Below are positions 7,391 to 20,000 of a DNA stretch of 20,000 bases, one piece after another. Numbering within the stretch: position 1 is the first letter of the stretch; each line of letters starts with the position of its first letter. The notes beneath the pieces were generated by a model, which saw nothing but the letters and a program-made list of their open reading frames with translations, was not told the DNA's origin and searched no databases. Where the stretch lies: the IMG/VR virus record IMGVR_UViG_3300030116_002442. One strand, given 5' to 3'. The position numbers and the translations under genes were made by a program. Source of the stretch: an uncultured virus (IMG/VR IMGVR_UViG_3300030116_002442) (lineage: Duplodnaviria > Heunggongvirae > Uroviricota > Caudoviricetes).

Positions 7391-7749
7391 TATGTATCTT
7401 GTATATTTACAGTTATAGAAAAAATACTAGTAACACCAGCAATAGAATACTTACCACTTACATCGTCACCTATTTCTATTAAATAATTTTCACCATTAGA
7501 AAACTCTTCCATAATAGCTCTAAATACAGTTCCAGATGACCCAGTTGATGTGTTTATCACTACATTATCAGTGGCAGTATTAGCAGTAGATTTAAACTCA
7601 TGCATGCATTTAAAGTTTAACATTACCATTGTAGAGTCTATAGTATAACCGCCTTCAAATCTACTCAAAGGATATAAACAAGAAGAAGTTTGGTCGTCGT
7701 CGTCAGCTACATTAGCTACATTTCTAAAGTATACATATTTATCATTCAT
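7390..7749 (-). CDS. Hypothetical protein, paralog family B
   Basis: 119 aa; YPLSRFEG...VMLNF...VVINT...EEF. Confidence 0.65.
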   Translation of the reverse strand: MNDKYVYFRNVANVADDDDQTSSCLYPLSRFEGGYTIDSTMVMLNFKCMHEFKSTANTATDNVVINTSTGSSGTVFRAIMEEFSNGENYLIEIGDDVSGKYSIAGVTSIFSITVNIQDT

Positions 7750-7753
7750 ACAT

Positions 7754-7761
7754 CAAATTTA
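7754..7761 (-). promoter_or_regulatory. Bacteroidota-type -7 promoter box (TAAATTTG) heading the late module
   Basis: TAnnTTTG, 4 nt before ATG 7749, with an A-tract upstream on the minus strand. Confidence 0.7.
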
Positions 7762-7904
7762 CAAAATTTTTATTTTTTTTATTTTTTTAGTGTAGGCACG
7801 TTTCTGTGAAGGTCTATATTGTTACGCCCCCACCGTCTCTCATTCTTCAAACCCCCGAGGCCTCAACATAACATCTGTCTATGTAACATAAAAAAGGATT
7901 GTTA

Positions 7905-7929
7905 GTTTTGCTGTTCTGTATTGTATTAA
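7905..7929 (+). repeat. Early-region motif copy 1 (GTTTTGCTGTTCTGTATTGTATTAA)
   Basis: 23/25 identical to 8486-8510; core also present at 8874, 9664 and 11304. Confidence 0.75.
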
Positions 7930-7945
7930 CTAAAACTATATTACT

Positions 7946-8191
7946 ATGAACAAGTTATTTATTTATTTACCATTAGGTTATGTTATATTAGGATGGACTA
8001 TATTCTTATCATGTCTTGTCTTCACAGAACCTAACTACCAAGCGTTACTAATATTACTACTATGTATTATGTTAGTAAAGTATTACCTATTCTATGCTAT
8101 CAAATATGTTAGACAATCAGAGAAAGATGAGATAGAATGGAAAGAATATCTTAAAGAATTAAAAGAATTAAGAGAAAAGAGGGACATTTAG
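7946..8191 (+). CDS. Small membrane protein, two predicted TM segments plus a charged C-terminus
   Basis: 81 aa with two hydrophobic stretches; followed by a terminator. Confidence 0.75.
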   Translation: MNKLFIYLPLGYVILGWTIFLSCLVFTEPNYQALLILLLCIMLVKYYLFYAIKYVRQSEKDEIEWKEYLKELKELREKRDI

Positions 8192-8203
8192 TCCCTTTTT
8201 TTT
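8180..8203 (+). terminator. Intrinsic terminator
   Basis: AGGGAC-ATTTA-GTCCCT followed by a T-run. Confidence 0.8.
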
Positions 8204-8396
8204 ATAAAAGGTTGTACCTGCGGTACGATTTGTTTAATATTTGTTATAAAAACGAGTGTATGTGTACAAGTATGAACCACTATATTCTGCCATTATCACT
8301 ACTATGTGTTACTCAGTGTGTTACATGCGTTATGTTGTTCTGTACTATTTAGGTAATTAGTATTGTTATGCTGTGCTTGTTGTCCCACACCCGCCC

Positions 8397-8425
8397 AAGT
8401 TACGAAAAAAAAATGACATTGTCAA
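8397..8425 (-). promoter_or_regulatory. sigma70-like promoter TTGACA-N17-TAACTT overlapping a TGACATTGTCA palindrome
   Basis: Perfect -35 hexamer, 17-nt spacer, 4/6 match at -10; inverted repeat at 8414-8424. Confidence 0.5.
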
Positions 8426-8485
8426 GTCTATTCTTAAGTATTTATGCTACTTCATACTATTTAGATGTTCTGTCTGTTATGTATT

Positions 8486-8510
8486 GTTTTGCTTTTCTTT
8501 ATTGTATTAA
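8486..8510 (+). repeat. Early-region motif copy 2 (GTTTTGCTTTTCTTTATTGTATTAA)
   Basis: Near-identical to 7905-7929; directly precedes a structured element. Confidence 0.75.
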
Positions 8511-8513
8511 TAC

Positions 8514-8594
8514 TGATAAACCTCTTCTATAGGTGCTAATTGATTGAAAGATATTAGCTATATAGTTTGTTCAGATGAGCAAAGGGGTTTATCA
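8514..8594 (+). ncRNA. Candidate structured RNA, 3-way junction
   Basis: P1 TGATAAACCTC/GGGGTTTATCA; P2 CTATA/TATAG plus GCTAAT/ATTAGC; P3 TTTGTTC-AGAT-GAGCAAA. Confidence 0.5.
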
Positions 8595-8610
8595 TATCAT
8601 TCATAAGTAA

Positions 8611-8702
8611 GGATTAGTCAGTAGCCTAACTAACAACTGAAGACACCGAGATGTGGATAAACTATAATCTAAGGTTACGCCCTCTCACCTTAAGCAGAGG
8701 GC
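8611..8702 (+). ncRNA. Candidate structured RNA: hammerhead-like element followed by an H-type pseudoknot
   Basis: GTC...CTGAAGA-CAC/GTG-GATAAAC with TAGT/ACTA pairing; then interleaved stems TAAGGT/ACCTTA and GCCCTCT/AGAGGGC. Confidence 0.35.
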
Positions 8703-8724
8703 ATTATATTTTAGCTATGAAAAT

Positions 8725-8871
8725 ATGAGTCTAAATAAATCAGTACTTGTAGTCATATTGTGGTTTGCAATGTGTCTATTTGTTTTAACATCACTATCAT
8801 CATGCAGTACAAGTAAAATCAACTCATGTTGGGACAGTAATGGTAAAACTAAAAATGGTATATACAAATAA
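8725..8871 (+). CDS. Small lipoprotein, 48 aa (MSLNKSVLVVILWFAMCLFVLTSLSS-CSTSKINSCWDSNGKTKNGIYK)
   Basis: Manual ORF with a basic N-region, hydrophobic h-region and lipobox LSS-C. Confidence 0.65.
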   Translation: MSLNKSVLVVILWFAMCLFVLTSLSSCSTSKINSCWDSNGKTKNGIYK

Positions 8872-8873
8872 TT

Positions 8874-8891
8874 GTTTTGCCGTTCGTTATT
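8874..8891 (+). repeat. Early-region motif copy 3 (GTTTTGCCGTTCGTTATT)
   Basis: Starts 3 nt after the stop at 8871, upstream of ORF 8946. Confidence 0.7.
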
Positions 8892-8945
8892 ATAGGTTTT
8901 GTTTGCTCGCCTTGAAGAGTAATATTAATTTAATTTTATTAAGCT

Positions 8946-9527
8946 ATGACAACATTAGCAAATTTTAAAAAGCTTGAAAATGTTTCAAGTGTACCTGTAG
9001 AGTATATGGATAGAACTCCAGGTATTAAAACAGGGGTATTAGATACTCTTACACCATCATTTACATACAAAATGTACAATGGTATTGATAAAAATGGTAA
9101 CATAAAAACTACCGAGCCTAAGCCATATGATATGGCAGATATCGTTCTTATTGAAAGACGAAAAGATAAAACTGGCCAATGGTATGACAAAGAATTACCT
9201 ACATTCTCAATGAACTTTAAATCTGTAGAACAATCTGACAACAGGGTTACATTTTATTCCATGTTATTCAGAAATTGTACATCTAAAGACATTGTTAATG
9301 AAATGTCCACAGGTAAATTAATCAAATCTAAAGCTTTCGTTAGTATTCTAAATGCTAATGATATACAACCTAATCAGTTTGTAGATATGGTTAAAAACCT
9401 AAAAACACCTATCTCGTTTGCTCAATACAAGCGTGATAATGGACAACTAAACTTCGTTGATGTAGATTACTACAACGAAAACAAAGCACAATCTTCTAAT
9501 GCTACTACAGAAGAACCTGTGTTTTAA
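8946..9527 (+). CDS. Hypothetical protein with an SSB-like acidic C-terminal tail (…TTEEPVF)
   Basis: 193 aa with a flexible linker and acidic-Pro-x-Phe end; has its own upstream motif and terminator. Confidence 0.75.
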   Translation: MTTLANFKKLENVSSVPVEYMDRTPGIKTGVLDTLTPSFTYKMYNGIDKNGNIKTTEPKPYDMADIVLIERRKDKTGQWYDKELPTFSMNFKSVEQSDNRVTFYSMLFRNCTSKDIVNEMSTGKLIKSKAFVSILNANDIQPNQFVDMVKNLKTPISFAQYKRDNGQLNFVDVDYYNENKAQSSNATTEEPVF

Positions 9528-9530
9528 TTC

Positions 9531-9563
9531 TAAGGGGGACTTCATCGTTCCCCTTATTTTTTT
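9531..9563 (+). terminator. Intrinsic terminator
   Basis: TAAGGGGGAC-TTCATC-GTTCCCCTTA followed by T7, directly after the stop. Confidence 0.85.
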
Positions 9564-9663
9564 AACCCCTGTCAGCACAGGGGAGCTTAGCCCTACCAAT
9601 CGACGGCGTGGGCGCGCTTAGTCACTATCATGCACGGTAGTGTGCCAATAGGTACAATTATTT

Positions 9664-9681
9664 GTTTGGCTGTTCTTTGCT
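9664..9681 (+). repeat. Early-region motif copy 4 (GTTTGGCTGTTCTTTGCT)
   Basis: Matches the core GTTTKGCYDTTC; upstream of ATG 9717. Confidence 0.65.
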
Positions 9682-9716
9682 TGTTGTTTTTTGTTTAACC
9701 TTTAATACTTTATGCT

Positions 9717-9824
9717 ATGAATATAGAAATTAATTCTGAGGACATGATTATATTGTCCTTGTACAACGAAAATAATGTAAATGAAGATATGTTTGATACC
9801 TTTGTGTCAAGCTATATCTCATAA
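9717..9824 (+). CDS. Small acidic peptide, 35 aa (MNIEINSEDMIILSLYNENNVNEDMFDTFVSSYIS)
   Basis: Manual ORF with the same leader (TTTAACCTTTAA…TTTATGCTATG) as ORF 10690. Confidence 0.6.
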   Translation: MNIEINSEDMIILSLYNENNVNEDMFDTFVSSYIS

Positions 9825-9829
9825 TTAAA

Positions 9830-10127
9830 TAAACGATAATCCATGGGTGATAATACATATTTAACAGAAAAGTGCTTGCACGAAGTAATTAACTATGTAT
9901 ATATGATGGTAGGAGCGACCAAAGCGGTGGCGGTTGTTTGACGTTAGGTGCACACTTGTTAGGGCCAATATCACAAAGCTCTTTAGAAACTCTTAGGCAA
10001 GGGACAGAAAGCCCCCTACATTTATTTGTATGGGTAAGTAATTATCTTGAACGATTAGACTCAAGAATTGAGAAAAAAAACTGGGCCACTCCTATTAATC
10101 GACAGACCACATTCTCCGTATCGTTTA
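9830..10127 (+). ncRNA. Candidate ~300-nt multi-domain ncRNA
   Basis: Closing stem TAAACGATA/TATCGTTTA; internal long-range pairs TAGGA/TCCTA plus GTGGC/GCCAC; several hairpins; no convincing ORF. Confidence 0.5.
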
Positions 10128-10136
10128 ACTTGTAAG

Positions 10137-10227
10137 ATAAGACTATTAGGTTGCAGAACAAGATACTTGTTGGTAGTGTATACTACATTGGAGGATAAAT
10201 ATCCTTTTTCTGTAGCCAATGTCTTAT
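10137..10227 (+). ncRNA. Candidate structured RNA, 4-way junction
   Basis: ~19-bp closing stem enclosing three 5-bp hairpins. Confidence 0.55.
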
Positions 10228-10251
10228 TATTTTTTAATTAATACTTATAAC

Positions 10252-10581
10252 ATGAAAAAATTACTTAAATCAATTAATTTATTGATAGCTGATTATCTTT
10301 CAGGTAAAGATATGGCTATCATACCTAAATCAGAACTCACTTTATTTATTAAACAATGTGAAGATGATGTACATTCCTTAAAACATGAAGTTCAAAACAT
10401 AACTATAGATGGCGAAAGTGTTACAAGAATGATACAAGATGAAGTTATAAATGCTTTAGAGTTTCGTTCTTATGACCTTGAACAATATATAGAAGGCTGT
10501 GGTTCGTGTGATGAGGTAATCACAGATTTAAAATCAAGAATAAATGAGTTTAAAACTAAAAACAATTTACGTAAAAATTAG
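10252..10581 (+). CDS. Hypothetical protein (start re-assigned to MKKLLKS)
   Basis: The track start at 10219 lies inside the 4-way junction stem. ATG 10252 has the TTAATACTTATAAC leader seen at other early genes. Confidence 0.7.
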   Translation: MKKLLKSINLLIADYLSGKDMAIIPKSELTLFIKQCEDDVHSLKHEVQNITIDGESVTRMIQDEVINALEFRSYDLEQYIEGCGSCDEVITDLKSRINEFKTKNNLRKN

Positions 10582-10587
10582 TAATAT

Positions 10588-10671
10588 AGGGAGTGCTCGT
10601 CGTAAGTAGCGGTTATTCACTCAGACGTACGTGTAAGCTGCAGCTAAGCACGTGAGAGCTCCCTTTTTTTT
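10588..10671 (+). ncRNA. Branched stem-loop ending in a U-tract (structured terminator/attenuator candidate)
   Basis: AGGGAGTGCTC/GAGAGCTCCCT closing stem, internal ACGTG/CACGT stem, T-run. Confidence 0.45.
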
Positions 10672-10689
10672 AACCTTTAAATTTATGCT

Positions 10690-10908
10690 ATGGAAATATT
10701 TGCAATTAATATGAAAACATATATGTTCAATAATTATACTGATGAAAGCTTTTTCAAAATAACTATTATTGATAATATGTTATACCAAACATTAGAAAGT
10801 GCTGTAAAGCAATTAGAATTATTATATGAAACTATTGATACAGATAATACAAATGTAGAGTATTACATAAGTACATACACATTACAATTACAAGATGATT
10901 ATAATTAA
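10690..10908 (+). CDS. Hypothetical protein, 72 aa
   Basis: ORF with the conserved early leader. Confidence 0.7.
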   Translation: MEIFAINMKTYMFNNYTDESFFKITIIDNMLYQTLESAVKQLELLYETIDTDNTNVEYYISTYTLQLQDDYN

Positions 10909-11113
10909 TAAACAAGAGGTTGATATCACCTCTTTAACAGTAGAAGATGTCAATAGATGTGACTTTCCGAAGTTCACTGATGCGTTCTTGTCAGCAGGTA
11001 AATACACAAATGGTAACAACCTGAACGGCAAGGAGTTAGAACAGCTTGAAAAAGAATACCCAGACTTAGTAAACCAGTTAGCAGTTGAATCGTATTGGGA
11101 TATAGGTCTATAA
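10895..11113 (+). CDS. Hypothetical phage protein, 72 aa (DFPKFTDAF motif)
   Basis: Overlaps the upstream stop; acidic globular composition. Confidence 0.7.
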   Translation: MIIINKQEVDITSLTVEDVNRCDFPKFTDAFLSAGKYTNGNNLNGKELEQLEKEYPDLVNQLAVESYWDIGL

Positions 11114-11126
11114 TTTTTCATAGCGA

Positions 11127-11203
11127 GCCACAGGTAAGTGTGGTACTTTTATAGTAAAATTAATACGAAACCAACTGAAGAGTGCTTACCCACTCTTTTT
11201 TTT
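11127..11203 (+). ncRNA. Candidate kissing-loop RNA ending in a terminator hairpin
   Basis: GCCACA-GGTAAG-TGTGGT and AAGAGTG-CTTACC-CACTCTT plus a T-run; the two loops are exact complements. Confidence 0.55.
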
Positions 11204-11229
11204 ATTCACTATCATTAATACTTACAACC

Positions 11230-11301
11230 ATGGAAGACTTAACCGACAATATATTTATAGGACTTATAGCAGTATTTATACTTTATATGATATTCGGGTA
11301 G
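11230..11301 (+). CDS. Single-TM micropeptide, 23 aa (MEDLTDNIFIGLIAVFILYMIFG)
   Basis: Manual ORF with a TTAATACTTACAACC leader like other early genes; ends 3 nt before motif copy 5. Confidence 0.55.
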   Translation: MEDLTDNIFIGLIAVFILYMIFG

Positions 11302-11303
11302 CT

Positions 11304-11321
11304 GTTTGGCTATTCGTTATT
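11304..11321 (+). repeat. Early-region motif copy 5 (GTTTGGCTATTCGTTATT)
   Basis: 15/18 identical to copy 3; upstream of ORF 11349. Confidence 0.7.
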
Positions 11322-11348
11322 CCTTTTGTTTAACCTTAATTTATAACT

Positions 11349-11894
11349 ATGAAAGAAAAACTTCAAACCGAAACAATATACAATGCATTGATTAATTATC
11401 AAATGTCATGCTCAAATGACCATAAAACTAAAAGCTTACAAGAAGCTATTTATCAATTAGAAGATATTAAAAACAACAAAGCTTTTATTAAAAACATTAC
11501 TAAAGCAAAAGATATTAAAAATGAAGCATGTTTAACTATAGATAATGTAGTTCATTTCTTAGAAACTTTTATTAAAATGGAGCCAACAGTAATTTCATTT
11601 ATAAAAGAAGATAATGGCACTACAGTGCATACTTTTATAAGGCATAACTCTATAGATTATCAAGAATGTGATAAATACAATCCTATTATGGGAGAAACAA
11701 ATGCTAGAGTTGAGCATGTGTCTAGAAAAATGTTTTCATTCTTCTTAAATATAATAGAATTGATGTCAGATACTCAATTAACGTACATGAAAAAAATATT
11801 TCATAACGAAATAAAAAGAAGAAAAGATATAGACAAAGTTGTTGATAAAGCTTCAAAAAAAATATTAAAAGATAATATAGATGAAAATAAATGA
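11349..11894 (+). CDS. Hypothetical protein, 181 aa
   Basis: Long ORF with the conserved leader; no recognised motif. Confidence 0.75.
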   Translation: MKEKLQTETIYNALINYQMSCSNDHKTKSLQEAIYQLEDIKNNKAFIKNITKAKDIKNEACLTIDNVVHFLETFIKMEPTVISFIKEDNGTTVHTFIRHNSIDYQECDKYNPIMGETNARVEHVSRKMFSFFLNIIELMSDTQLTYMKKIFHNEIKRRKDIDKVVDKASKKILKDNIDENK

Positions 11895-12075
11895 TGAAAT
11901 GCGCAATGGTATTCCTTGGGAAGCCATTGAAGATTACTATGATATGTTAGAGGAGCCTGAGTGGTTTTACTTCCATTGCTCTGATAATGTGTCGTATGAA
12001 ATTACCAGTAAAGGAGAAACCTTTGCTGATGAAAAATTATTAACTAAAAAATTATATAAAAAATGTGTGGATTAG
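11881..12075 (+). CDS. Hypothetical acidic protein, 64 aa
   Basis: Overlaps both neighbours by 13-14 nt. Confidence 0.65.
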   Translation: MKINDEMRNGIPWEAIEDYYDMLEEPEWFYFHCSDNVSYEITSKGETFADEKLLTKKLYKKCVD

Positions 12076-12977
12076 TAGGATTTAGTGGTAAAGCTGATAC
12101 AAGTGTATTTAAAGCTTTACATTTATTAGCAGATAATGACAGTAGGGGCGGACACTCTTCAGGATTATTTGCAAATGGTAAAATATACAAGACTGTTGAT
12201 GAGTCTATGAATATATTACCTATGCTTAAAACTAGCGTAACTGGTAGTGTTCTTATTGGACACACTAGATATGCAACTCACGGTAAACATACTGTTGAGA
12301 ACGCTCACCCTTATCAATATAATAACATTGTAGGAGCACACAATGGTGTATTATCTAATTATGAAGAGGTGGGTAAAAAGTTTAATATTAAAAAGACCAC
12401 CGTTGACTCTCAAATGATATTTAAATTACTTGCACAAGAAAAAGACGACAACCATTTAGGTTTATTTAGTGGTGCTAAGAATGTTTTATTTACCAAAGGA
12501 GACAACAAGCTTTATGTATACCGTAGAGATAACCCATTGTTTTACTTAGAAACAGAGGAGGGTATATATGTAAGTTCTTTAGAAGAAGGTCTTAAAAATA
12601 TTAAGAAAAAGAACGAAGTTGTAATAGAAGTTCCAGAAAATAAATTATTTACATTAGAAAATGGCAAGATTGTAAAAACAAAGAAAATTAAACATAAACC
12701 AATCGCATCTAAATCTACTGTAAATACAGACTGGAGAAGCTATGGTGGATACACTCCAAGAAGTGAGCTCTATGGTAATTACACTTATGACAGTTATGGT
12801 GGTTATGATTTTCAAGAAGAAGATGATAAGCTACAAGAACAAGAGTTTGAACAACTTGCAGATTTTGCTGACTTTGTGCATGAATTGTATTGTACTGACA
12901 GATTTACTGATACAGAGCAACACAAGCTTATGGAATTGTATAACTTTTTAAACACTTATGCTTATGAGTACTATTAA
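12063..12977 (+). CDS. Class II (Ntn) glutamine amidotransferase
   Basis: N-terminal MCG (catalytic Cys2), RGGHSSG, GHTRYATHG, NAHPY, HNGVLSN and VDS motifs. Confidence 0.92.
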   Translation: MCGLVGFSGKADTSVFKALHLLADNDSRGGHSSGLFANGKIYKTVDESMNILPMLKTSVTGSVLIGHTRYATHGKHTVENAHPYQYNNIVGAHNGVLSNYEEVGKKFNIKKTTVDSQMIFKLLAQEKDDNHLGLFSGAKNVLFTKGDNKLYVYRRDNPLFYLETEEGIYVSSLEEGLKNIKKKNEVVIEVPENKLFTLENGKIVKTKKIKHKPIASKSTVNTDWRSYGGYTPRSELYGNYTYDSYGGYDFQEEDDKLQEQEFEQLADFADFVHELYCTDRFTDTEQHKLMELYNFLNTYAYEYY

Positions 12978-14316
12978 AGAAAAATTAGTTGAATGTGTAT
13001 GTGGTAATCATTTTCCTATTGAAGAGGTTGTAGACCTTTATGGTGGAGGTTATGTTCATAATGAAGAATTAGATGATTATGTACAATTAGATGAATCTTG
13101 TGGGGAATCTCAACTTAGTAACGGTGGACTTTGGTGCCACATACACGATACTATAGAAGTTGATTGTGACAGCAGCTATTATCCTGCAGAAAACTATCAT
13201 GACTTTGACATTGACTGGTGTCATGCTAATGAAACCTATATGTATACAGATAATATGTACTGGGGGTATGTTAGTAGAAGAAATGAGGGTTGGTTCTGTA
13301 ATGAAAGTACTGATTATGTTTATTCAGAACGTGATGATGTGTATTTTATGGACTGCGATATAGCTCGAGATAGAGACTATGAATATTGTGAATCATCAGA
13401 TGATTATCTGCATGTAGATGACATAGAAAACTCAGGAAGCGAGTGGGATAACACTAGCGACACAGCTAATCTATGTAAAAAGTATAGAAAAACTTTTGGT
13501 ATGCCATATACTTTTGGTGTAGAAATAGAAACTAGCGATGGTTACTTAGAATTTGATAGCAGCCTAAATGTTAAAGCTGTATACGATGGTAGTATAAACG
13601 GTAAAGAATATGTTACTGGTTGTATGTCAGGTGATGGAGGTGTTAATATGTTACAGAGAATATGCCAAAAAATTAGTCATACTTGTTATGTAGACTCTAG
13701 TTGTGGCGTTCATGTTCATATAGGTGGTGCTAACTTCAATAGAAGATTTAGTATATTATCTGTTATGTTAGGTGTAATGCTTGAGACGCAAATATTTTCT
13801 ATGATGCCTCCATCAAGAATGAAGTCTAGTTATTGTTTGAAAATACCTGATAAGTTCTATAAGTTAAGAACTATTAACAAAAGACTATACCCAAGAACAT
13901 ACAAAAGAATGTTAAATTTATTAGCAGAGTATGTTCATGTTGAAGGGTCTGAGTTTTCTAAAAACAATAACAAAAAACTTTCTCATCCAGGTGGTAGGTA
14001 CGCTAGTTCTAGATATAAGTGGTTAAATCTAAATAACTGTAGTTATAATAGAACTGGCCCTAATACCATTGAATTCAGGTGTCATAGTGGCTCTAAAGAT
14101 TTCACTAAAATATATAATTGGTTATTAATATGTATGTGTTTTGTGAAGTATGTAGAGAATAATTCTAGAGACATTATAAATTCATACAATGATTGGATTA
14201 AGGGGCATGTTAGTAAAAGAATAACACTGGATACAATTATAAAAGCTGGACTTGGTAAAAAATCTGATTTCTTGATACAATACATCAACAACAGAATGGA
14301 AAAGTTTTCAGGTTAA
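12958..14316 (+). CDS. Putative amidoligase (COOH-NH2 ligase, glutamine synthetase-like fold) with an acidic repeat N-terminus
   Basis: TFGVEIE, DGSI, EYVT, SCGVHVHIG, RYKWLN and TIEFR motifs; adjacent to the GATase-II. Confidence 0.85.
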   Translation: MLMSTIKEKLVECVCGNHFPIEEVVDLYGGGYVHNEELDDYVQLDESCGESQLSNGGLWCHIHDTIEVDCDSSYYPAENYHDFDIDWCHANETYMYTDNMYWGYVSRRNEGWFCNESTDYVYSERDDVYFMDCDIARDRDYEYCESSDDYLHVDDIENSGSEWDNTSDTANLCKKYRKTFGMPYTFGVEIETSDGYLEFDSSLNVKAVYDGSINGKEYVTGCMSGDGGVNMLQRICQKISHTCYVDSSCGVHVHIGGANFNRRFSILSVMLGVMLETQIFSMMPPSRMKSSYCLKIPDKFYKLRTINKRLYPRTYKRMLNLLAEYVHVEGSEFSKNNNKKLSHPGGRYASSRYKWLNLNNCSYNRTGPNTIEFRCHSGSKDFTKIYNWLLICMCFVKYVENNSRDIINSYNDWIKGHVSKRITLDTIIKAGLGKKSDFLIQYINNRMEKFSG

Positions 14317-14329
14317 TCGCTGCTCAATT

Positions 14330-14456
14330 AAGTGTGTGTAATAGTTATTTAAAATATATCTTGTCCGTAACTATGTGCGGCCCGTGATTCCGCGCACACA
14401 CTTTAACATAAGGTTTAGATTAGGCCTAGAGCTGAATACTCTATCAACCAATCTAA
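14330..14456 (+). ncRNA. Candidate structured RNA: 3-way junction plus an interrupted hairpin
   Basis: AAGTGTGTGT/GCACACACTT enclosing ATAGTTAT/GTAACTAT and GCGG/CCGC; then TTAGATT/AATCTAA with TAGAG/CTCTA. Confidence 0.5.
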
Positions 14457-14460
14457 TAAT

Positions 14461-14493
14461 ACCCCTACTATTTGGCGTGTAGGGGTTCCTTTT
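14461..14493 (+). terminator. Terminator-like hairpin
   Basis: ACCCCTAC/GTAGGGGT followed by TCCTTTT. Confidence 0.6.
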
Positions 14494-14530
14494 GTTGATA
14501 ACTTTTTTTTATTATTAACAATTATTAATA

Positions 14531-14538
14531 TAAATTTG
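14531..14538 (+). promoter_or_regulatory. Bacteroidota-type -7 promoter box (TAAATTTG) heading the replication module
   Basis: TAnnTTTGCA, 7 nt before ATG 14546. Confidence 0.7.
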
Positions 14539-14545
14539 CAACCTC

Positions 14546-14863
14546 ATGGATAAATTACAAAAACAATTATGGTTCGATACTTTCTGGAAAGAGTATCCCA
14601 AAAAGGTAGGTAAAAAACAATGTAAGACATACTGGTCTAAACTAAAAGTGTCAGCAGAGTTATTCACTATCATTATGGACAGTTTGGTTGCTCAAAACGT
14701 CCTACGTGCAAAATATGCGCAAAATAATGCGTGGTACCCTAATCCTCCCGACCCTATTCGTTGGCTTAAATACGAACGTTGGGAAGATGAATTACCACCA
14801 ATGGAAACTGAAGTTAAACAGGTTTATAAAAAACCACAATACAAAAATTATGATGAAAGATAA
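14546..14863 (+). CDS. Phage replication-initiator/replisome-organiser C-terminal-like domain, stand-alone
   Basis: FDTFWKEYPKKVGK…W…P…WLKYERWEDE pattern; upstream of DnaB. Confidence 0.7.
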   Translation: MDKLQKQLWFDTFWKEYPKKVGKKQCKTYWSKLKVSAELFTIIMDSLVAQNVLRAKYAQNNAWYPNPPDPIRWLKYERWEDELPPMETEVKQVYKKPQYKNYDER

Positions 14864-15029
14864 TGTAATAGTAGATTACGATAAAGTGCAAGACGCTTTA
14901 CAATACTTCCAAGAATTTAGAATGGAAGAATTAAAACAAGACGACGCTTATTATATTAAACATATGATAAGGTATATAGAATACCTAGAGTTTAAAATAG
15001 ATGTTAAAAATAAAGCGTTAGGATTATGA
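14853..15029 (+). CDS. Hypothetical protein, ~58 aa (MKDNVIVDYD…)
   Basis: 3' part of track ORF 14688..15029; ATG at 14850 or 14853; ATGA overlap with dnaB. Confidence 0.65.
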   Translation: MKDNVIVDYDKVQDALQYFQEFRMEELKQDDAYYIKHMIRYIEYLEFKIDVKNKALGL

Positions 15030-16327
15030 ATAAAGATAAATTAAATTTTGAAAGAATATTACTTGGTAAACTTATTAATAACCCTGAAAATTATTATGAA
15101 AACCACTCTCTTTTAAATGTATCTTTATTTAGTAACCCAGACAATAGAAAATTGTTTTCAGTATTAGATAAACAATATCAAGAAACAGGTAAAATAGATT
15201 TGACACAATTTTATATGTCTTTTTCTGACTCATCTACAGCTATAGATATAGCTCGTAAATGCACAGAAATGGCTTATGATGGCTCTACATGTCAATCTAT
15301 TATACTTGTTTTAAATCAAATATCTAGAAAAGAAAGATTAAAAATGTTATGTTTAAAAACTATAGACAGAATTAATAATGACGATGATTTATTTGAAATA
15401 GTAGATTCTGTTGAAAAAGAAACAAACAATATAGGTAATGTAGATAACAATGAATTAGTTTCTATAAGCGAACAAATGCCAGGTATGCTTAAAGGTTTAG
15501 AAGATAATATAAATTCTAACGGCATGACTGGTATACCTAGTGGCTTTCCTTCTATAGATAAATTTACAAGTGGTTGGCAAAAACAAGACTTAGTTATAAT
15601 AGGTGGTGCCTCATCTATGGGTAAAACTAGTTTTGCTTTAAATGTAGCTGTTAATGCTTGTAATATGAATCACTCTATTGTTATATTTTCTTACGAAATG
15701 AGTGTAAATCAAATGTTAATGCGTATGGTTAGTGGTGACACTAATATAAACAATAAACATTTACTTAAAGGCACTATATACCCAGAAGAGTTAACAAAAA
15801 TACACCAAAGTGTTGGTCATTTTGAAAAACTCAATATGTATATAGACGAGTGTAGAAATACATCCTTAAAATATTTACTTAATAGAATAAGACAATATGT
15901 TATATCTAAAAAAGTAGAAATGGTAGTTGTAGATTATCTTCAATTAATTTCTTACAATGCAAAGGGTAGAACAAGAGAACAAGAAGTGTCTCATGTAGCA
16001 AGGGCATTAAAAAACATAGCTAAAGAATTAGACATAACTGTAGTTGCTTTGTCTCAATTATCTAGAAATGTAAGTAAAAGAGATACGGGTAGGCCTACAC
16101 TTGCTGACTTAAGAGAATCAGGTGAAATAGAACAAGCTGCTGATGTTGTTGCTTTTGTTTATAGACCAGAATATTATGGTTTAAAAACAGATGATAATGG
16201 CAATAGTGTAGAGGGTATGGCTGAAATAATATTTGCTAAGGGTAGAAATATAGGTATAGGTAGTAAGTATTTAAAGTTTGTTGATTACTTAACTAAGTTT
16301 GAAGAGTTATCAACATTTAAATCTTAA
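15026..16327 (+). CDS. dnaB: Replicative DNA helicase, DnaB family
   Basis: GIPSGF, GGASSMGKT (Walker A), FSYEMS, VVVDYLQL, LSQLSR, DLRESGEIEQAAD and KGRN motifs. Confidence 0.96.
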   Translation: MNKDKLNFERILLGKLINNPENYYENHSLLNVSLFSNPDNRKLFSVLDKQYQETGKIDLTQFYMSFSDSSTAIDIARKCTEMAYDGSTCQSIILVLNQISRKERLKMLCLKTIDRINNDDDLFEIVDSVEKETNNIGNVDNNELVSISEQMPGMLKGLEDNINSNGMTGIPSGFPSIDKFTSGWQKQDLVIIGGASSMGKTSFALNVAVNACNMNHSIVIFSYEMSVNQMLMRMVSGDTNINNKHLLKGTIYPEELTKIHQSVGHFEKLNMYIDECRNTSLKYLLNRIRQYVISKKVEMVVVDYLQLISYNAKGRTREQEVSHVARALKNIAKELDITVVALSQLSRNVSKRDTGRPTLADLRESGEIEQAADVVAFVYRPEYYGLKTDDNGNSVEGMAEIIFAKGRNIGIGSKYLKFVDYLTKFEELSTFKS

Positions 16328-16361
16328 TAAACTATCAAAATATTTTTGCTTTTCTTTTTTG

Positions 16362-16388
16362 TATATTTGTATTTATTAAGTACATTTG
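16362..16388 (+). promoter_or_regulatory. Two tandem TAnnTTTG boxes (TATATTTG 16362-16369, TACATTTG 16381-16388)
   Basis: Intergenic; the second box is 6 nt before ATG 16395. Confidence 0.55.
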
Positions 16389-16394
16389 TATGAT

Positions 16395-16619
16395 ATGATT
16401 AGATTTGATGATACATCTAAAAAGGTGTCTAAAAACCTTAATATTAAAAAAGATATTGTTAAAAAAGTTCTTAACAAAACCTTCGAGGAAATAGAAAAGA
16501 ACTTAAATAACAATAAAAATTTTATGTTTAAGGGTTACACTAAAATTGTCAAGTCTAATCAGAAAAGAAAACCGATAAATAAAATCGAATTGTTTAATTT
16601 AAAAACGAAAGAAAAATGA
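16395..16619 (+). CDS. HU/IHF-like DNA-binding protein (divergent, short)
   Basis: Basic; helix-helix pattern VSKNLNIKKDIVKKVLNKTFEEIEKNL followed by FMFKGY, similar to the HU GFG strand. Confidence 0.55.
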   Translation: MIRFDDTSKKVSKNLNIKKDIVKKVLNKTFEEIEKNLNNNKNFMFKGYTKIVKSNQKRKPINKIELFNLKTKEK

Positions 16620-17299
16620 AACCGAATATAATTATTGTGGGACCCTCGGGGTCAGGTAAGTCGAGCTCTATGAGAAATCTTGACCCTAAGTCCACAGCTG
16701 TGATTAACACAGAAAGAAAACAACTGCCATTTAGAAATGCTAATGAGTTTATGAATGTGCCAGTTAAAAGTGTGTCAGAATTTCACACAGCTTTAGACAA
16801 AGCTATTAAAAGTGATAAAATAAAAACTATTGTTGTAGAATCTTTTACCTCTCTTGTAGAAACTATATATAGAGAAGCCGAAATAAGATACAAAGGCTTT
16901 GATGTGTGGGGTTATTACAACAAAGAGATAGGTAATATACTAGACAAGTCTAAGAACTCTGATAAGTACGTTATATTTACTGCTATAGATGGTGTGTATG
17001 ATGGAGATAATGGAGTTGAAGAAAGGTATGTTGCTGTAGATGGTAATAGATGGAAGAAAAGAGTAGAGAAAGAGTTTGTTGTTAGTTTATTTACAGACAC
17101 TTTATCTACTGATGATGGTGTTCAGTATAGGTTTAGAACAAATACAACAGGTAGAGATTCTGCAAAGAGTCCTATGGATATGTTCAAAAGCCTTTACATA
17201 GATAACTGTTTAAGAAAAGTTATAAGAGCTTGTAAAGACTATTATACAGAGCCACAAACAGCTATTATGAATAGTACATTTGCAAAAGAAAAAGTTTAA
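16616..17299 (+). CDS. AAA_24 / Sak4-like P-loop ATPase (single-strand annealing)
   Basis: GPSGSGKSSS, INTERKQLPF, IVVES and SAKSPMDMF…IDN motifs; directly upstream of an SSB-like gene. Confidence 0.85.
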   Translation: MKPNIIIVGPSGSGKSSSMRNLDPKSTAVINTERKQLPFRNANEFMNVPVKSVSEFHTALDKAIKSDKIKTIVVESFTSLVETIYREAEIRYKGFDVWGYYNKEIGNILDKSKNSDKYVIFTAIDGVYDGDNGVEERYVAVDGNRWKKRVEKEFVVSLFTDTLSTDDGVQYRFRTNTTGRDSAKSPMDMFKSLYIDNCLRKVIRACKDYYTEPQTAIMNSTFAKEKV

Positions 17300-17315
17300 T
17301 TAAAATCGAATAAAA

Positions 17316-17864
17316 ATGTTTCCAAAATTGAATGAAACCAAATTAAAGACTCCTGAATCTAAGTCAGATTACTTAGGTGCAGGAGCACACACAGTAGAAA
17401 TTAGAAAATTTAAAACAAGTGATGAGGTACCAGGTTATCAAGGCACGCCATATACAGAATTTATGGTGGGTAATGACTCTGGTATTGCATTTCTAAAATT
17501 CACAGGTGTAGATAACTATACTAGTGAAGCTGCTGCTAGAGTAAGAACTGAGATATTTAAATCTTTCTTAACCGCCGCAGGTTGTTCTAATTTTACAGAC
17601 GCTCACATTGCTTGCACTACAATATTAGGCAAGAAATTAGAGGTGTGTTTAGCAACAAGGGAGTATTGGACTACAGATAAAGACACCAATAATCCAGAAA
17701 TAAAAACCAGAGTTGAATACAAATTCGCAAACCCTTTTGGTAGTAAGATAACTTTTAAAGATAGTTATAACAAGCCTATGTCTGCAGAAGACAGACAAAA
17801 ATACGAACAGGCTGTTAGTCTTTCTACATCAGGTAGTAACGATAATGTTGAAGTTCCATTTTAA
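17316..17864 (+). CDS. Putative single-stranded DNA-binding protein (DUF669-like)
   Basis: YLGAGAHTVEI start, acidic tail ending VEVPF, adjacent to the Sak4-like ATPase. Confidence 0.65.
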   Translation: MFPKLNETKLKTPESKSDYLGAGAHTVEIRKFKTSDEVPGYQGTPYTEFMVGNDSGIAFLKFTGVDNYTSEAAARVRTEIFKSFLTAAGCSNFTDAHIACTTILGKKLEVCLATREYWTTDKDTNNPEIKTRVEYKFANPFGSKITFKDSYNKPMSAEDRQKYEQAVSLSTSGSNDNVEVPF

Positions 17865-17875
17865 ATATTAAAATA

Positions 17876-18046
17876 ATGAAAATAGTAAATTACTTTACAG
17901 CAAACGCAAGACAATGGGATAAATTTAAATTAGAATTTAGACTATTAGGCTTTACATTTATTGAATTAAAACTTGACATTTCTAGAAAGTGTTTTAAGTT
18001 TGTATTGTTAAACGTAGGTTTTAACTGCAATAATTGCGAATGCTAA
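17876..18046 (+). CDS. Hypothetical protein, 56 aa (MKIVNYFTANARQWDKF…CNNCEC)
   Basis: Manual ORF; its stop abuts the next ATG. Confidence 0.7.
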   Translation: MKIVNYFTANARQWDKFKLEFRLLGFTFIELKLDISRKCFKFVLLNVGFNCNNCEC

Positions 18047-18451
18047 ATGGGAAGTAAGCACTTAGCATTTATTAAAAATGGAAAAGTGACTTATCAAAAC
18101 AGAGAATTGTTTGATGACCACTTGCTCAGTTACGAGGGTAAGACTGTAGTAATTACAGTAGGGGAGCAGAGAAGGAGACGTAGTCTTAATCTCAACTCGT
18201 ATTATTGGGCAGTGGTTGTCAAACTTTTATCTGAAGAAACAGGTTATGATAAAGACGAAATGCATGAAGTATTAAAGTCTATGTTTCTTAGAACAAGGTA
18301 TCAAATAAAGGGAGTGTGGGTAGATGGAACAAAATCTACTACCAAATTATCTAATAAAGAAATGGGTGAGTTTATAGAAGAGGTAAAAAGATTTGCGTCT
18401 ACAACTTTAGGTGTATATGTTCCTGACCCAAATGAAGTAGATTATGAATAG
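18047..18451 (+). CDS. NinB/Orf-like recombination protein
   Basis: RSLNLNSYYW, HEVLK, STTKLSNKEMGEFIEEV and GVYVPDP motifs. Confidence 0.8.
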   Translation: MGSKHLAFIKNGKVTYQNRELFDDHLLSYEGKTVVITVGEQRRRRSLNLNSYYWAVVVKLLSEETGYDKDEMHEVLKSMFLRTRYQIKGVWVDGTKSTTKLSNKEMGEFIEEVKRFASTTLGVYVPDPNEVDYE

Positions 18452-18836
18452 TTTTTTTATATTAGGCAATGTGCCTTCTAGTAAGAATGGTAAAAGATGG
18501 ACGGGTAAATATCTTATACACAGTAAAACAACTATGAGATATATAAAAGAAACTAAAGATGATTACTTAAGATTAAGAAAAGATTTTACAGAGGAGTTAA
18601 AAAAATACAAACCTCCTTATATAATATCATTTAAATTTATTAGAAATAGCAAAAGAAAGTTTGATTATGTTAATCCTTTACAAACGGTACAAGACCTTAT
18701 GGTTAAGTATCATTGGATAGAAGATGATAATGCAAATTTTTTATTACCTGTATTTGAACCATATGAATATAATAAAGTTAAACCAGGTGTGTTAATCACC
18801 ATAAAATCAAATAACCATGACAAAGAGAAGAAATAA
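18444..18836 (+). CDS. RusA-like Holliday junction resolvase
   Basis: VPSSKN, RKFDYVN, QDLM and IEDDN motifs. Confidence 0.78.
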   Translation: MNSFFILGNVPSSKNGKRWTGKYLIHSKTTMRYIKETKDDYLRLRKDFTEELKKYKPPYIISFKFIRNSKRKFDYVNPLQTVQDLMVKYHWIEDDNANFLLPVFEPYEYNKVKPGVLITIKSNNHDKEKK

Positions 18837-19041
18837 TACTCACTATACTAGATTGTTAGACTACTTAAAAAAGTTTAAAAGTATAACAAGTCTAGATGCA
18901 ATAAGAGACTTAGGTAACACTAGGTTATCGGCTACTATATATACACTAAGACGTGATGGATATAATATAGAAAGTGAAGATATTAAAGTTAGTAACAGAT
19001 GGGGTGGCTCAACCACTGTATCAAAATACACATTAGTATGA
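18817..19041 (+). CDS. Winged helix-turn-helix protein
   Basis: LLDYLK…SITSLDA…RLSATIYTLRRDGYNI pattern. Confidence 0.8.
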   Translation: MTKRRNNTHYTRLLDYLKKFKSITSLDAIRDLGNTRLSATIYTLRRDGYNIESEDIKVSNRWGGSTTVSKYTLV

Positions 19042-19832
19042 AGCGACCAAATATTAAATTAATTAAAGATTCAGAGATAACTGACCATACATATTATGAA
19101 GACTGTATGTATATGTCAAACTCTATGCTTAAAATGTTTATGGAAAAATGCCCTAAACATTATGCATATAGATTAGAAAATCCTATAAAAACAACACAAG
19201 CAATGAAGTTTGGAACAGCTTTTCATATGTTAGTTTTAGAGGGTATAGAAGTTTTTCAAAAAAACTATGTAGTAGAACCCGATGTAGACAAAAGAACTAC
19301 ACTTGGTAAAGCAACTCTTATTAAGTTTAATGAACACATAGGAGATAGAATACCTATACCCGTTAAAGACCATAGTCTTATGATGAGTATGTTTGAACAA
19401 TTATCAGAACACAACAACATAGATATACTTTTACAGTGTAAAGAAAAAGAGTCAATATATTTATGGGAAAACAAAACAGTGGGATTGTTGTGTAAAGGTA
19501 AGTTTGATGCAGTTAATCATGACAAGAAATATATAGTTGATTTAAAAACCACTAGGAATGCTGGTCCAGAAAAATTTAAAGAATTACTTATGAATGCTAA
19601 GTACCATATGCAAGCAGCCTATTATCTTGATGCCCTTGGATATTCCGATTACTTTATAATAGCTATTGAGAAAGATAGGCCGCATTGCGTATGCACTTAT
19701 AAGTTAAGTAAAGAGATGATACAAGAAGGTAGAAAGCTTTATATGGATGGGTTAAAGTCGTACAAAAAGATTATTAAAAATGACGACTCTTATATGTTAG
19801 ATTATAATTTAGGAAAGATATGCAAAATATAG
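19038..19832 (+). CDS. PD-(D/E)XK nuclease, RecE/exonuclease VIII-like (DUF3799-like)
   Basis: SNSMLK, AMKFGTAFH, CKGKFD, IVDLKTT and YHMQAAYY motifs. Start moved to the ATGA overlap at 19038. Confidence 0.88.
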   Translation: MKRPNIKLIKDSEITDHTYYEDCMYMSNSMLKMFMEKCPKHYAYRLENPIKTTQAMKFGTAFHMLVLEGIEVFQKNYVVEPDVDKRTTLGKATLIKFNEHIGDRIPIPVKDHSLMMSMFEQLSEHNNIDILLQCKEKESIYLWENKTVGLLCKGKFDAVNHDKKYIVDLKTTRNAGPEKFKELLMNAKYHMQAAYYLDALGYSDYFIIAIEKDRPHCVCTYKLSKEMIQEGRKLYMDGLKSYKKIIKNDDSYMLDYNLGKICKI

Positions 19833-19924
19833 AGTTAAAAGATTTAGTTGTATTAATGATTATGTTAATATTAGCTTGTATAAATGTGTGGGTAATAGAA
19901 TATTTAATGAATAATTGTAATTAA
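19820..19924 (+). CDS. Small single-TM peptide, 34 aa
   Basis: Manual ORF MQNIELKDLVVLMIMLILACINVWVIEYLMNNCN filling the gap. Confidence 0.5.
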   Translation: MQNIELKDLVVLMIMLILACINVWVIEYLMNNCN

Positions 19925-19926
19925 TT

Positions 19927-20000
19927 ATGGAAAAAGAATTAAAATTAGAAGATAGTATAGAAATAACTATTAAAAATGTAAAGTTAGTAATTAAACATAA
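19927..20000 (+). CDS. Hypothetical protein (partial)
   Basis: MEKELKLEDSIEITIKNVKLVIKH…, open to the window end. Confidence 0.55.
   Translation, partial: MEKELKLEDSIEITIKNVKLVIKH

Follow-up and report, generated by a model that had tools for sequence, protein, structure and literature searches.

A single-copy structured RNA with complementary hairpin loops lies upstream of a membrane micropeptide gene in a marine phage

We describe a structured non-coding RNA of about 80 to 87 nt (11117-11203, plus strand), which is encoded in a single copy among the early genes of a marine phage that has not been cultured. Its first hairpin and its terminator-like last hairpin carry mutually complementary six-nucleotide loops. 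Compensatory changes among the homologs make the proposed structure very likely genuine, and a contact between the loops may explain why they are conserved. The element is followed by a conserved gene for a very short membrane peptide.

Anatomy of the element

All coordinates are those of the window, the whole AT-rich stretch of 20,000 nucleotides of phage DNA that was analysed. The element and the gene behind it consist of the following parts:

11117-11127, plus strand: 5' tail TTCATAGCGAG, single-stranded, unpaired in the folds, with 11/11 columns invariant in six variants
11128-11143, plus strand: hairpin P1, stem CCACA/TGTGG (11128-11132/11139-11143) and loop GGTAAG (11133-11138)
11144-11156, plus strand: small hairpin P2, TACT and AGTA around the loop TTTAT
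11157-11177, plus strand: A-rich unstructured linker, containing the non-conserved CAACTGAAGA
11178-11203, plus strand: hairpin P3, intrinsic-terminator-like, stem AAGAGTG/CACTCTT (11178-11184/11191-11197), loop CTTACC (11185-11190) and T8 (11196-11203)
11230-11301, plus strand: 23-aa micropeptide gene (MEDLTDNIFIGLIAVFILYMIFG), with an acidic N-terminus and one hydrophobic helix

An initial sequence-only reading of this stretch had reported two hairpins with complementary six-nucleotide loops, the second of them a terminator hairpin with a long T-run, and both parts of that description can be read directly from the letters. P1 and P3 appear in the terminator scan as well as in the RNA fold of 11114-11215, and their loops are exact reverse complements. 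The stems that carry these loops are unrelated in sequence, and the two hairpins are therefore not halves of one larger inverted repeat. P3 has the form expected of an intrinsic terminator, with a G-C-containing stem of 7-8 bp directly before a U-run, in 6/6 variants (T8 in five of them, T5 in the one named L003), and together with the compensatory pairs in its stem this supports its assignment as a putative terminator. In the window type P2 is weak, being absent from the minimum-free-energy structure of the trimmed 87 nt and reduced to 3 pairs in that of a longer stretch. The tail could either be part of the 5' end of the RNA or overlap the transcription start.

The chance level of such an arrangement was estimated by counting perfect 5-bp stems with 6-nt Watson-Crick complementary loops lying 16-120 nt apart. 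The window contains one such hairpin pair and at least one was found in 2 of 300 dinucleotide shuffles (mean 0.007); with loops widened to 4-8 nt, 10 of 100 shuffles contained one. A search of both strands of three related phage genomes (193,057 bases), with G-U pairs allowed, turned up the homologs of the element and no other pair of this kind.

The sequence-only reading had also pointed to a recurrence of CAACTGAAGA, and the ten bases do occur both at 8634-8643 and at 11172-11181. This recurrence is at chance level, since 11127-11301 shares 29 ten-mers with other parts of the window, where 200 shuffles gave 20.6 on average, and it is not conserved, the homologs having CAACCAAAGA, CAACAGAAGA and CAATGAAAGA in its place. 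Local alignment of 11101-11215 with 8501-8760 recovers only the ten-mer, with a score of 20, whereas other segments of the window reach 28. A repeat, or paralogy with 8500-8760, was rejected on these two grounds, the chance-level recurrence and the alignment limited to the ten-mer.

Homologs and distribution

Homologs were sought by neighbour-protein searches and by DNA-pattern scans of viral contigs, metagenomes, and bacterial and archaeal genomes. Eleven records including the window, from marine viral and metagenomic contigs, yielded six distinct element sequences, namely the window type (identical in L179 and L001), L181 (identical in L185), L183, L055 (identical in L184), L182 and L003 (identical in L186). 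The diversity is shallow and amounts to three lineages, with L003, whose downstream neighbour protein is only 31% identical, as the most distant member.

Chance matches were told by GC-rich unrelated flanks and the lack of hairpins. They accounted for 42/45, 1/4 and 115 of the at least 118 listed matches in the viral-contig pattern scans, for 1/8 in the metagenome scan and for 2/2 in the scan of bacterial and archaeal genomes, where one match lay inside a coding region and the other had no matching second hairpin or T-run; both were rejected. When the hairpin-hairpin-T-run architecture was searched with tail and stems left free, the three matches in 2.9 million viral contigs all belonged to the element family.

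The covariance model R1 found one site each in the window (111.1 bits) and in the related genomes G003 (105.7 bits) and G002 (86.7 bits), the next best score being at most 16.4 bits, and it gave nothing credible in two further related genomes, G004 and G005 (15 and 16 bits). Across the whole window Rfam 15 produced no match at the gathering score, and at E ≤ 5 over 7700-11400 nothing fell within 11117-11203; the nearest row was porB RNA at 11213-11247 (E 3.9, with 20.4 bits where the gathering score is 35.1). In the literature searched we found no description of the element or of a phage terminator-loop kiss; the intergenic-transcript tables for the Cellulophaga phage phi14:2 could bear on the comparison with that phage. 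The element is a real conserved small RNA motif of narrow distribution, apparently not described before.

Covariation and strand

When the proposed structure is laid over the alignment of the six variants, 93.9% of its cells are paired, and sliding the 3' partners by 1-3 columns lowers this figure to 36-52%. Four pairs show changes on both sides, a number matched by 1 of 500 column shuffles. In P1, the pair in alignment columns 15/24 is C-G in three variants, U-A in two and U-G in one. The P3 stem of L003 reads AGGGGUA/UACCCCU in place of AAGAGUG/CACUCUU, with three of its seven pairs changed on both sides and pairing kept. Folded sequence by sequence, P2 is GACU/GGUC in L055, GACU/AGUC in L182 and L003, and UACU/AGUA in the window type, so that its first pair switches from U-A to G-C and its fourth is U-A or U-G; the alignment statistics undercount this support because MAFFT misaligns the 3' arm of P2.

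The same changes bear on the strand. U-G intermediates occur in P1 of L181 and in P2 of L055, and these, together with a G-U pair between the loops of L003, would be C-A mismatches on the minus strand, which argues for an RNA read from the plus strand. The position of T8 after P3 on the plus strand and the plus-strand orientation of all neighbouring genes lead to the same assignment. Folding energy showed no preference for the plus strand (z -1.86, with 10 of 200 shuffles as good, against z -2.43 and 1 of 200 on the minus strand). The structured plus-strand RNA proposed in the sequence-only reading is therefore borne out by compensatory changes, wobble intermediates and the T-run. A 26-aa ORF that crosses the element (11138-11218) was rejected, as its frame is lost in L181 through a 1-nt indel and in L003 through changes in length, and we accordingly treat the element as non-coding.

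Conservation and pairing of the loops

Comparison of the window with L003 showed identities of 11/11 in the 5' tail, 6/6 in the P1 loop, 5/6 in the P3 loop, 8/14 in the P3 stem and 14/35 in P2 plus linker. Over all variants taken together there is no variation in the tail and the P1 loop, and 12/35 columns are invariant in P2 plus linker. The terminator loop is thus more conserved than its own stem, which was unexpected; at the linker-level identity of 13/35, conservation of at least 5/6 positions would arise by chance with a binomial probability of about 0.03.

The single change in the P3 loop, from CTTACC to CTTATC in L003, still allows pairing with GGUAAG through a G-U pair. All 36/36 loop-loop cells are consequently paired in the 6/6 variants; five pairs of the would-be kissing helix are invariant and one changes from G-C to G-U on one side, with no double-sided covariation. 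The fate of the loops in homologs was the point on which the sequence-only reading had staked its proposal: their complementarity is preserved, which favours the proposal weakly, in that the C-to-U change of L003 keeps a pair, and the loops pair in every variant with no change on both sides. One tolerated change is weak evidence, because the P3 loop could undergo 18 different single substitutions, and 4 of them (4 of the 6 transitions, counted by hand) would also keep pairing. No variant with a different P1 loop was present among the matches listed in two pattern scans, one of which, free at the loops, gave three family members and one chance match.

Beyond the loops, complementarity extends by three wobble or A-U pairs into the 3' arm of P1 and the 5' arm of P3 in 6/6 variants, giving a 9-nt register. 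The pattern of P3-loop conservation is consistent with a kissing loop, and we rate an intramolecular kiss between the loops of P1 and P3 at about even chances; the invariant loops could also each be conserved for a separate partner.

The micropeptide gene and its promoter context

The single-transmembrane ORF that the sequence-only reading placed after the hairpins was found in 6/6 variants. The ORF listing gives 11230-11301 only as the inner part of a longer GTG-started ORF (11182-11301). The peptide gene begins 17-27 nt after the U-run in 6/6 variants (26 nt in the window), and its frame and 23 codons are kept in five of them, the L003 peptide having 25 aa. Differences between the window and L055 are distributed 8/3/12 over the three codon positions, with the third dominating, and the ORF is a real conserved gene. 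The homologs, a family of 22-25 aa, lie at:

1327-1395 of L190 (22 aa)
2884-2961 of L003
11230-11301 of the window

Near the 3' end of the gene, at about 1000-1020 of L185 (homologous to 11280-11295 of the window), the sequence has 2 bases fewer than the otherwise identical L181; this loss would shift the frame over the last micropeptide codons and may be an assembly error or a natural variant.

The peptide contains no basic residues and has a net charge of -2 to -3 in the five variants computed, and Pfam and PHROGs returned nothing credible (best E 0.11 and 2.3). Nothing in this acidic sequence without a credible family match indicates toxicity, and the suggestion of a possibly toxic peptide in the sequence-only reading found no support.

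Next after the peptide gene comes a gene for a 159-190-aa protein of no known family. The relative L190 has the same upstream gene, the 22-aa peptide gene and the same downstream gene without the RNA element, the peptide gene starting only 4 nt past the stop codon of the upstream ORF; R1 found no element in the L190 genome (best 15 bits). A peptide gene in this place without the RNA implies that the element was added to a row of genes that existed before it and that the peptide is independent of the RNA, and it also argues against a toxin-antitoxin relationship between the two.

The -7 box of Flavobacterium-type sigma-A promoters has the consensus TAnnTTTG at -12 to -5 (PMC9723704). One candidate precedes the element:

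11111-11118, plus strand: possible host sigma-A -7 box TAATTTTT, resembling TAnnTTTG

L055 has TAAGTTTT as a -7-like box one base further upstream of the tail. These boxes would put the transcription start near 11122-11123. No good match to a -7 box was seen in L003, where the element starts 15-20 nt past the terminator of another RNA, and a promoter for the element is weakly suggested, in L003 not at all. Read by eye against the same consensus, the 26-nt spacer between the U-run and the ATG of the peptide gene contains no good Flavobacterium-type -7 box, and for this reason the peptide gene of phages with the element probably depends on read-through of P3.

A second structured RNA upstream

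A second conserved structured RNA ending in T8 lies at 10586-10671 on the plus strand of the window. It has 23 predicted pairs, 7 of them compensatory in eight sequences (window, L003, L051-L053, L055, L056 and L059), and one of its distal stems carries an insert of variable length that can reach about 75 nt. Covariation supports it more strongly than it does the kissing-loop element. Its core pattern matched 10 viral-contig stretches, 8/10 without the kissing-loop element, and Rfam gave no match to it. In the 10/10 loci with enough flank the upstream RNA lies 78-991 nt 5' of the kissing-loop element, and in a relative contig of the L003 type the two are 20 nt apart.

The phage and its probable host

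The genes of the window are arranged in two blocks:

up to about 7750, minus strand: genes including that for a 606-aa terminase-like protein
from 7946, plus strand: numerous small familyless proteins, then GATase, amidoligase, DnaB, AAA_24 ATPase and PD-(D/E)XK nuclease

The best tblastn matches of the 606-aa protein are large terminase subunits of crAss-like phages, with 27-30% identity over at least 90% of the length. Its 207 matched records include 97 whose organism name begins with Flavobacterium, 47 with uncultured, 30 with Bacteroides and 10 with Cellulophaga. The amidoligase matched nine phage records, among them Cellulophaga phage phi14:2 with 28% identity. Class-II glutamine amidotransferase and amidoligase genes stand side by side at 12063-14316 on the plus strand (Pfam GATase_6, 2.5e-13; Amidoligase_2, 9e-18), a pairing also present in phi14:2-type phages. 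By these similarities the nearest relatives of the terminase and the amidoligase are in phages of Bacteroidota, among them crAss-like phages. These affinities, and ORFs without Shine-Dalgarno motifs upstream, point to a probable Bacteroidota host for this marine phage. Near-complete related contigs measure 62-68 kb. No cultured phage in the collection searched was matched at the DNA level by 8000-14500 (megablast) or by 10560-11350 (blastn), the record G001 had no match to 10800-11700, and the window contains no tRNA or tmRNA.

Several further features were observed around the early region. Two long stretches without credible ORFs (8192-8945 and 9528-10218, plus strand) stand at the start of the rightward early region and hold GC-rich hairpins and a strong terminator (9531-9556); they are reminiscent of the abundant early intergenic RNAs reported for phi14:2. 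The motif TT(G/T)TTTAACC followed by TT(T)AA occurs at 9691-9700, 10666-10675 and 11326-11335, 23-26 nt 5' of the ATGs at 9717, 10690 and 11349, with one more TT(G/T)TTTAACC at 9558-9567 directly 3' of the terminator 9531-9556. A similar motif precedes the homologous genes in L055 and L003, and its role may be that of an early promoter or of a signal for translation start. A count over the whole window that allowed up to 2 mismatches showed no enrichment (42 matches against 40.3 expected).

In the relative G003, the piece L201 (G003:C1:20001-40000) contains an open frame of 3571 aa or more (9285-19998, minus strand), which reaches the end of the piece. By tblastn it is weakly similar (E 8e-4), with 25% identity across some 300 aa, to a protein of crAss001-like Bacteroides phages that is a putative RNA polymerase. 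Pfam and PHROGs gave no match, and a DFDxD motif was not found in the 3571 aa read; given the weak match and the missing motif, we make no claim of a virion polymerase for G003.

Proposed mechanism and alternative explanations

To the observed helices, strand, single copy, linkage with the peptide and loop conservation, the reading we prefer would add a loop kiss, termination at P3 and a consequence for the peptide. The element would be an early small RNA, or a terminator-ended leader, compacted by a kiss between the P1 loop and the terminator loop, a proposal that we judge evenly poised between right and wrong. Transcription entering or starting at the element would end mostly at P3 and yield a short, stable early RNA. 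The P1 loop would dock on the terminator loop in a 6-bp intramolecular kiss, and the resulting compact fold would stabilise the terminator hairpin and the 3' end while leaving the invariant tail exposed as a recognition surface for a target or factor. Polymerases that read through P3 would supply the 23-aa membrane-peptide gene, and if the peptide is supplied in this way the element would also be an attenuating insulator between the upstream gene and the peptide. That the element regulates the peptide is doubtful on present evidence. Unlikely, in our estimate, is an extended form of this proposal in which the terminator loop serves as a regulated docking site, engaged either in the loop kiss, giving a clamped terminator and a stable small RNA, or in a 9-bp strand capture that gives read-through; such a switch may act jointly with the covarying upstream RNA at 10586-10671.

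The conservation profile can also be read as that of a trans-acting early small RNA, in which tail, P1 loop and P3 loop are each kept for separate partners (mRNAs of the host or the phage, a protein, or another molecule of the same RNA in an intermolecular kiss) and the self-complementarity is incidental or a self-mask. We hold this to be rather unlikely. Its most conserved parts, the single-stranded tail (11/11) and the P1 loop (6/6), form the pattern typical of seed regions, and the motif GUAAG is also present in the conserved upstream RNA at 10586-10671. However, no conserved complementary site emerged from the window and three related genomes, where the G-U-tolerant scan was too permissive and returned long lists, and a trans-acting role leaves unexplained why the exact complement of the P1 loop sits in the terminator loop.

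The 9-nt register suggests a further possibility, a conditional attenuator in which the P1 loop with its 3' arm (GGUAAGUGU) would pair with the 5' arm and loop of P3 (GUGCUUACC) as an antiterminator, a tail-bound factor opening P1 and so allowing read-through into the peptide and early genes. The register is available in 6/6 variants at -7.5 to -10.1 kcal/mol by the duplex program, with all 9 positions paired in L183 and L003, which have U-A and A-U in place of wobbles, whereas the remaining four variants pair 7. The spacer without a good -7 box, which makes the peptide gene seem dependent on read-through, would also suit an attenuator. Against this, the alternative fold reaches -7.3 kcal/mol where the main fold has -16.8 in the window, and -13.7 against -19.0 in L003, making it 5-10 kcal/mol weaker, and part of the 9-nt extension is trivial, since both stems end in U/A or G/U beside the loops. 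Conditional attenuation strikes us as quite improbable.

Very unlikely is a signal at the DNA level, for instance an origin, an inverted repeat bound by a protein, or a hairpin promoter used by a phage polymerase. A conserved flank beside an invariant-loop hairpin does resemble N4-type hairpin promoters, and folding is no worse on the minus strand than on the plus strand. N4-type virion RNA polymerase promoters come in several copies ahead of early transcription units, whereas the element has one copy per genome, its tail motif giving 2 matches with up to 3 mismatches against 2.17 expected. Moreover, the G-T intermediates and the G-U loop pair fit only a plus-strand RNA, P3 is followed by T8 as in a terminator, and the similarity of the giant frame of G003 to a crAss protein thought to be an RNA polymerase is weak.

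A type I toxin-antitoxin-like pair, with the peptide as toxin and the RNA upstream of it as antitoxin or translational gate, has a small single-transmembrane ORF directly 3' of a structured small RNA in its favour, as well as a GUAAGU at the window P1 loop that can pair with ACUUAC at -10 to -5 of the peptide AUG, but we find it extremely improbable, because L190 has the peptide gene without the RNA, the RNA is on the same strand with no extended antisense match, the peptide has no basic residues and only noise among Pfam and PHROG matches, and the start-site pairing was rejected as a conserved feature (ACUUAC is AUUUAC, hence a wobble, in L183, L055 and L182, and is unmatched in L181 and at that place in L003).

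Comparison with known systems

Terminator leaders, attenuators and terminator-ended small RNAs share with the element the hairpins, a GC-containing stem with a U-run, genes in the same orientation and, probably, a downstream dependence on read-through. The element differs from them in having no leader peptide, demonstrated antiterminator, ligand or protein partner, and in that the loop of the terminator itself seems to be conserved for docking.

Fully complementary loop-loop complexes are known from HIV TAR/TAR* (a 6-nt kiss), ColE1 RNA I/RNA II and R1 CopA/CopT, all of them intermolecular antisense interactions. Their 6-7-nt loops are likewise exact complements with all positions pairable; in the element, by contrast, both loops are on one RNA of about 87 nt, 41 nt apart, and one of them caps a terminator. 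The purine riboswitch aptamer (RF00167) combines an L2-L3 loop kiss with a closing helix, a three-way junction and a conserved junction core. It resembles the proposed fold of the element in having two hairpin loops that dock near a transcription terminator, whereas the element has no closing helix, three-way junction or junction core, and its terminator hairpin would itself be the kissing partner; a closing helix is absent from folds of the trimmed element, and the fold of a longer stretch pairs the flanks weakly. Guanidine-II (mini-ykkC) has two like ACGR tetraloops and controls translation. Two tandem hairpins, a variable linker and a function that in the element, too, would lie in loop-loop contact are common ground, but the element has two different, mutually complementary hexaloops (GGUAAG/CUUACC) and no Rfam match.

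Type I toxin-antitoxin systems such as hok/sok, fst and ibs/sib also place a small RNA beside a very short hydrophobic ORF; here there is no antisense match beyond 6 nt, RNA and peptide gene are not always linked, and the peptide is acidic. For the crAss-like Cellulophaga phage phi14:2, abundant early intergenic non-coding RNAs, described as long, are reported (bioRxiv 10.1101/2020.03.07.982082). They are like the element in being intergenic, at the start of the rightward early region, and in a phage whose terminase and amidoligase show it to be related. The first 12 kb of phi14:2 contained no homolog of the element, R1 scoring at most 16 bits there.

Implications

To our knowledge, little has been learned about regulatory RNAs of phages beyond a few model systems, and we know of almost nothing for marine Bacteroidota phages. 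The element also flags a conserved 22-25-aa membrane peptide gene and the RNA motif at 10586-10671, both without a match in the libraries searched (Pfam and PHROGs for the former, Rfam for the latter). Because it is small, easily synthesised and makes clear predictions, it could show whether a terminator loop serves as a tertiary docking site, and such docking could tune termination or RNA stability. If the regulated form of this proposal were true, the element would be a self-contained RNA switch that sets early transcription into a membrane micropeptide and replication genes in crAss-related marine phages.
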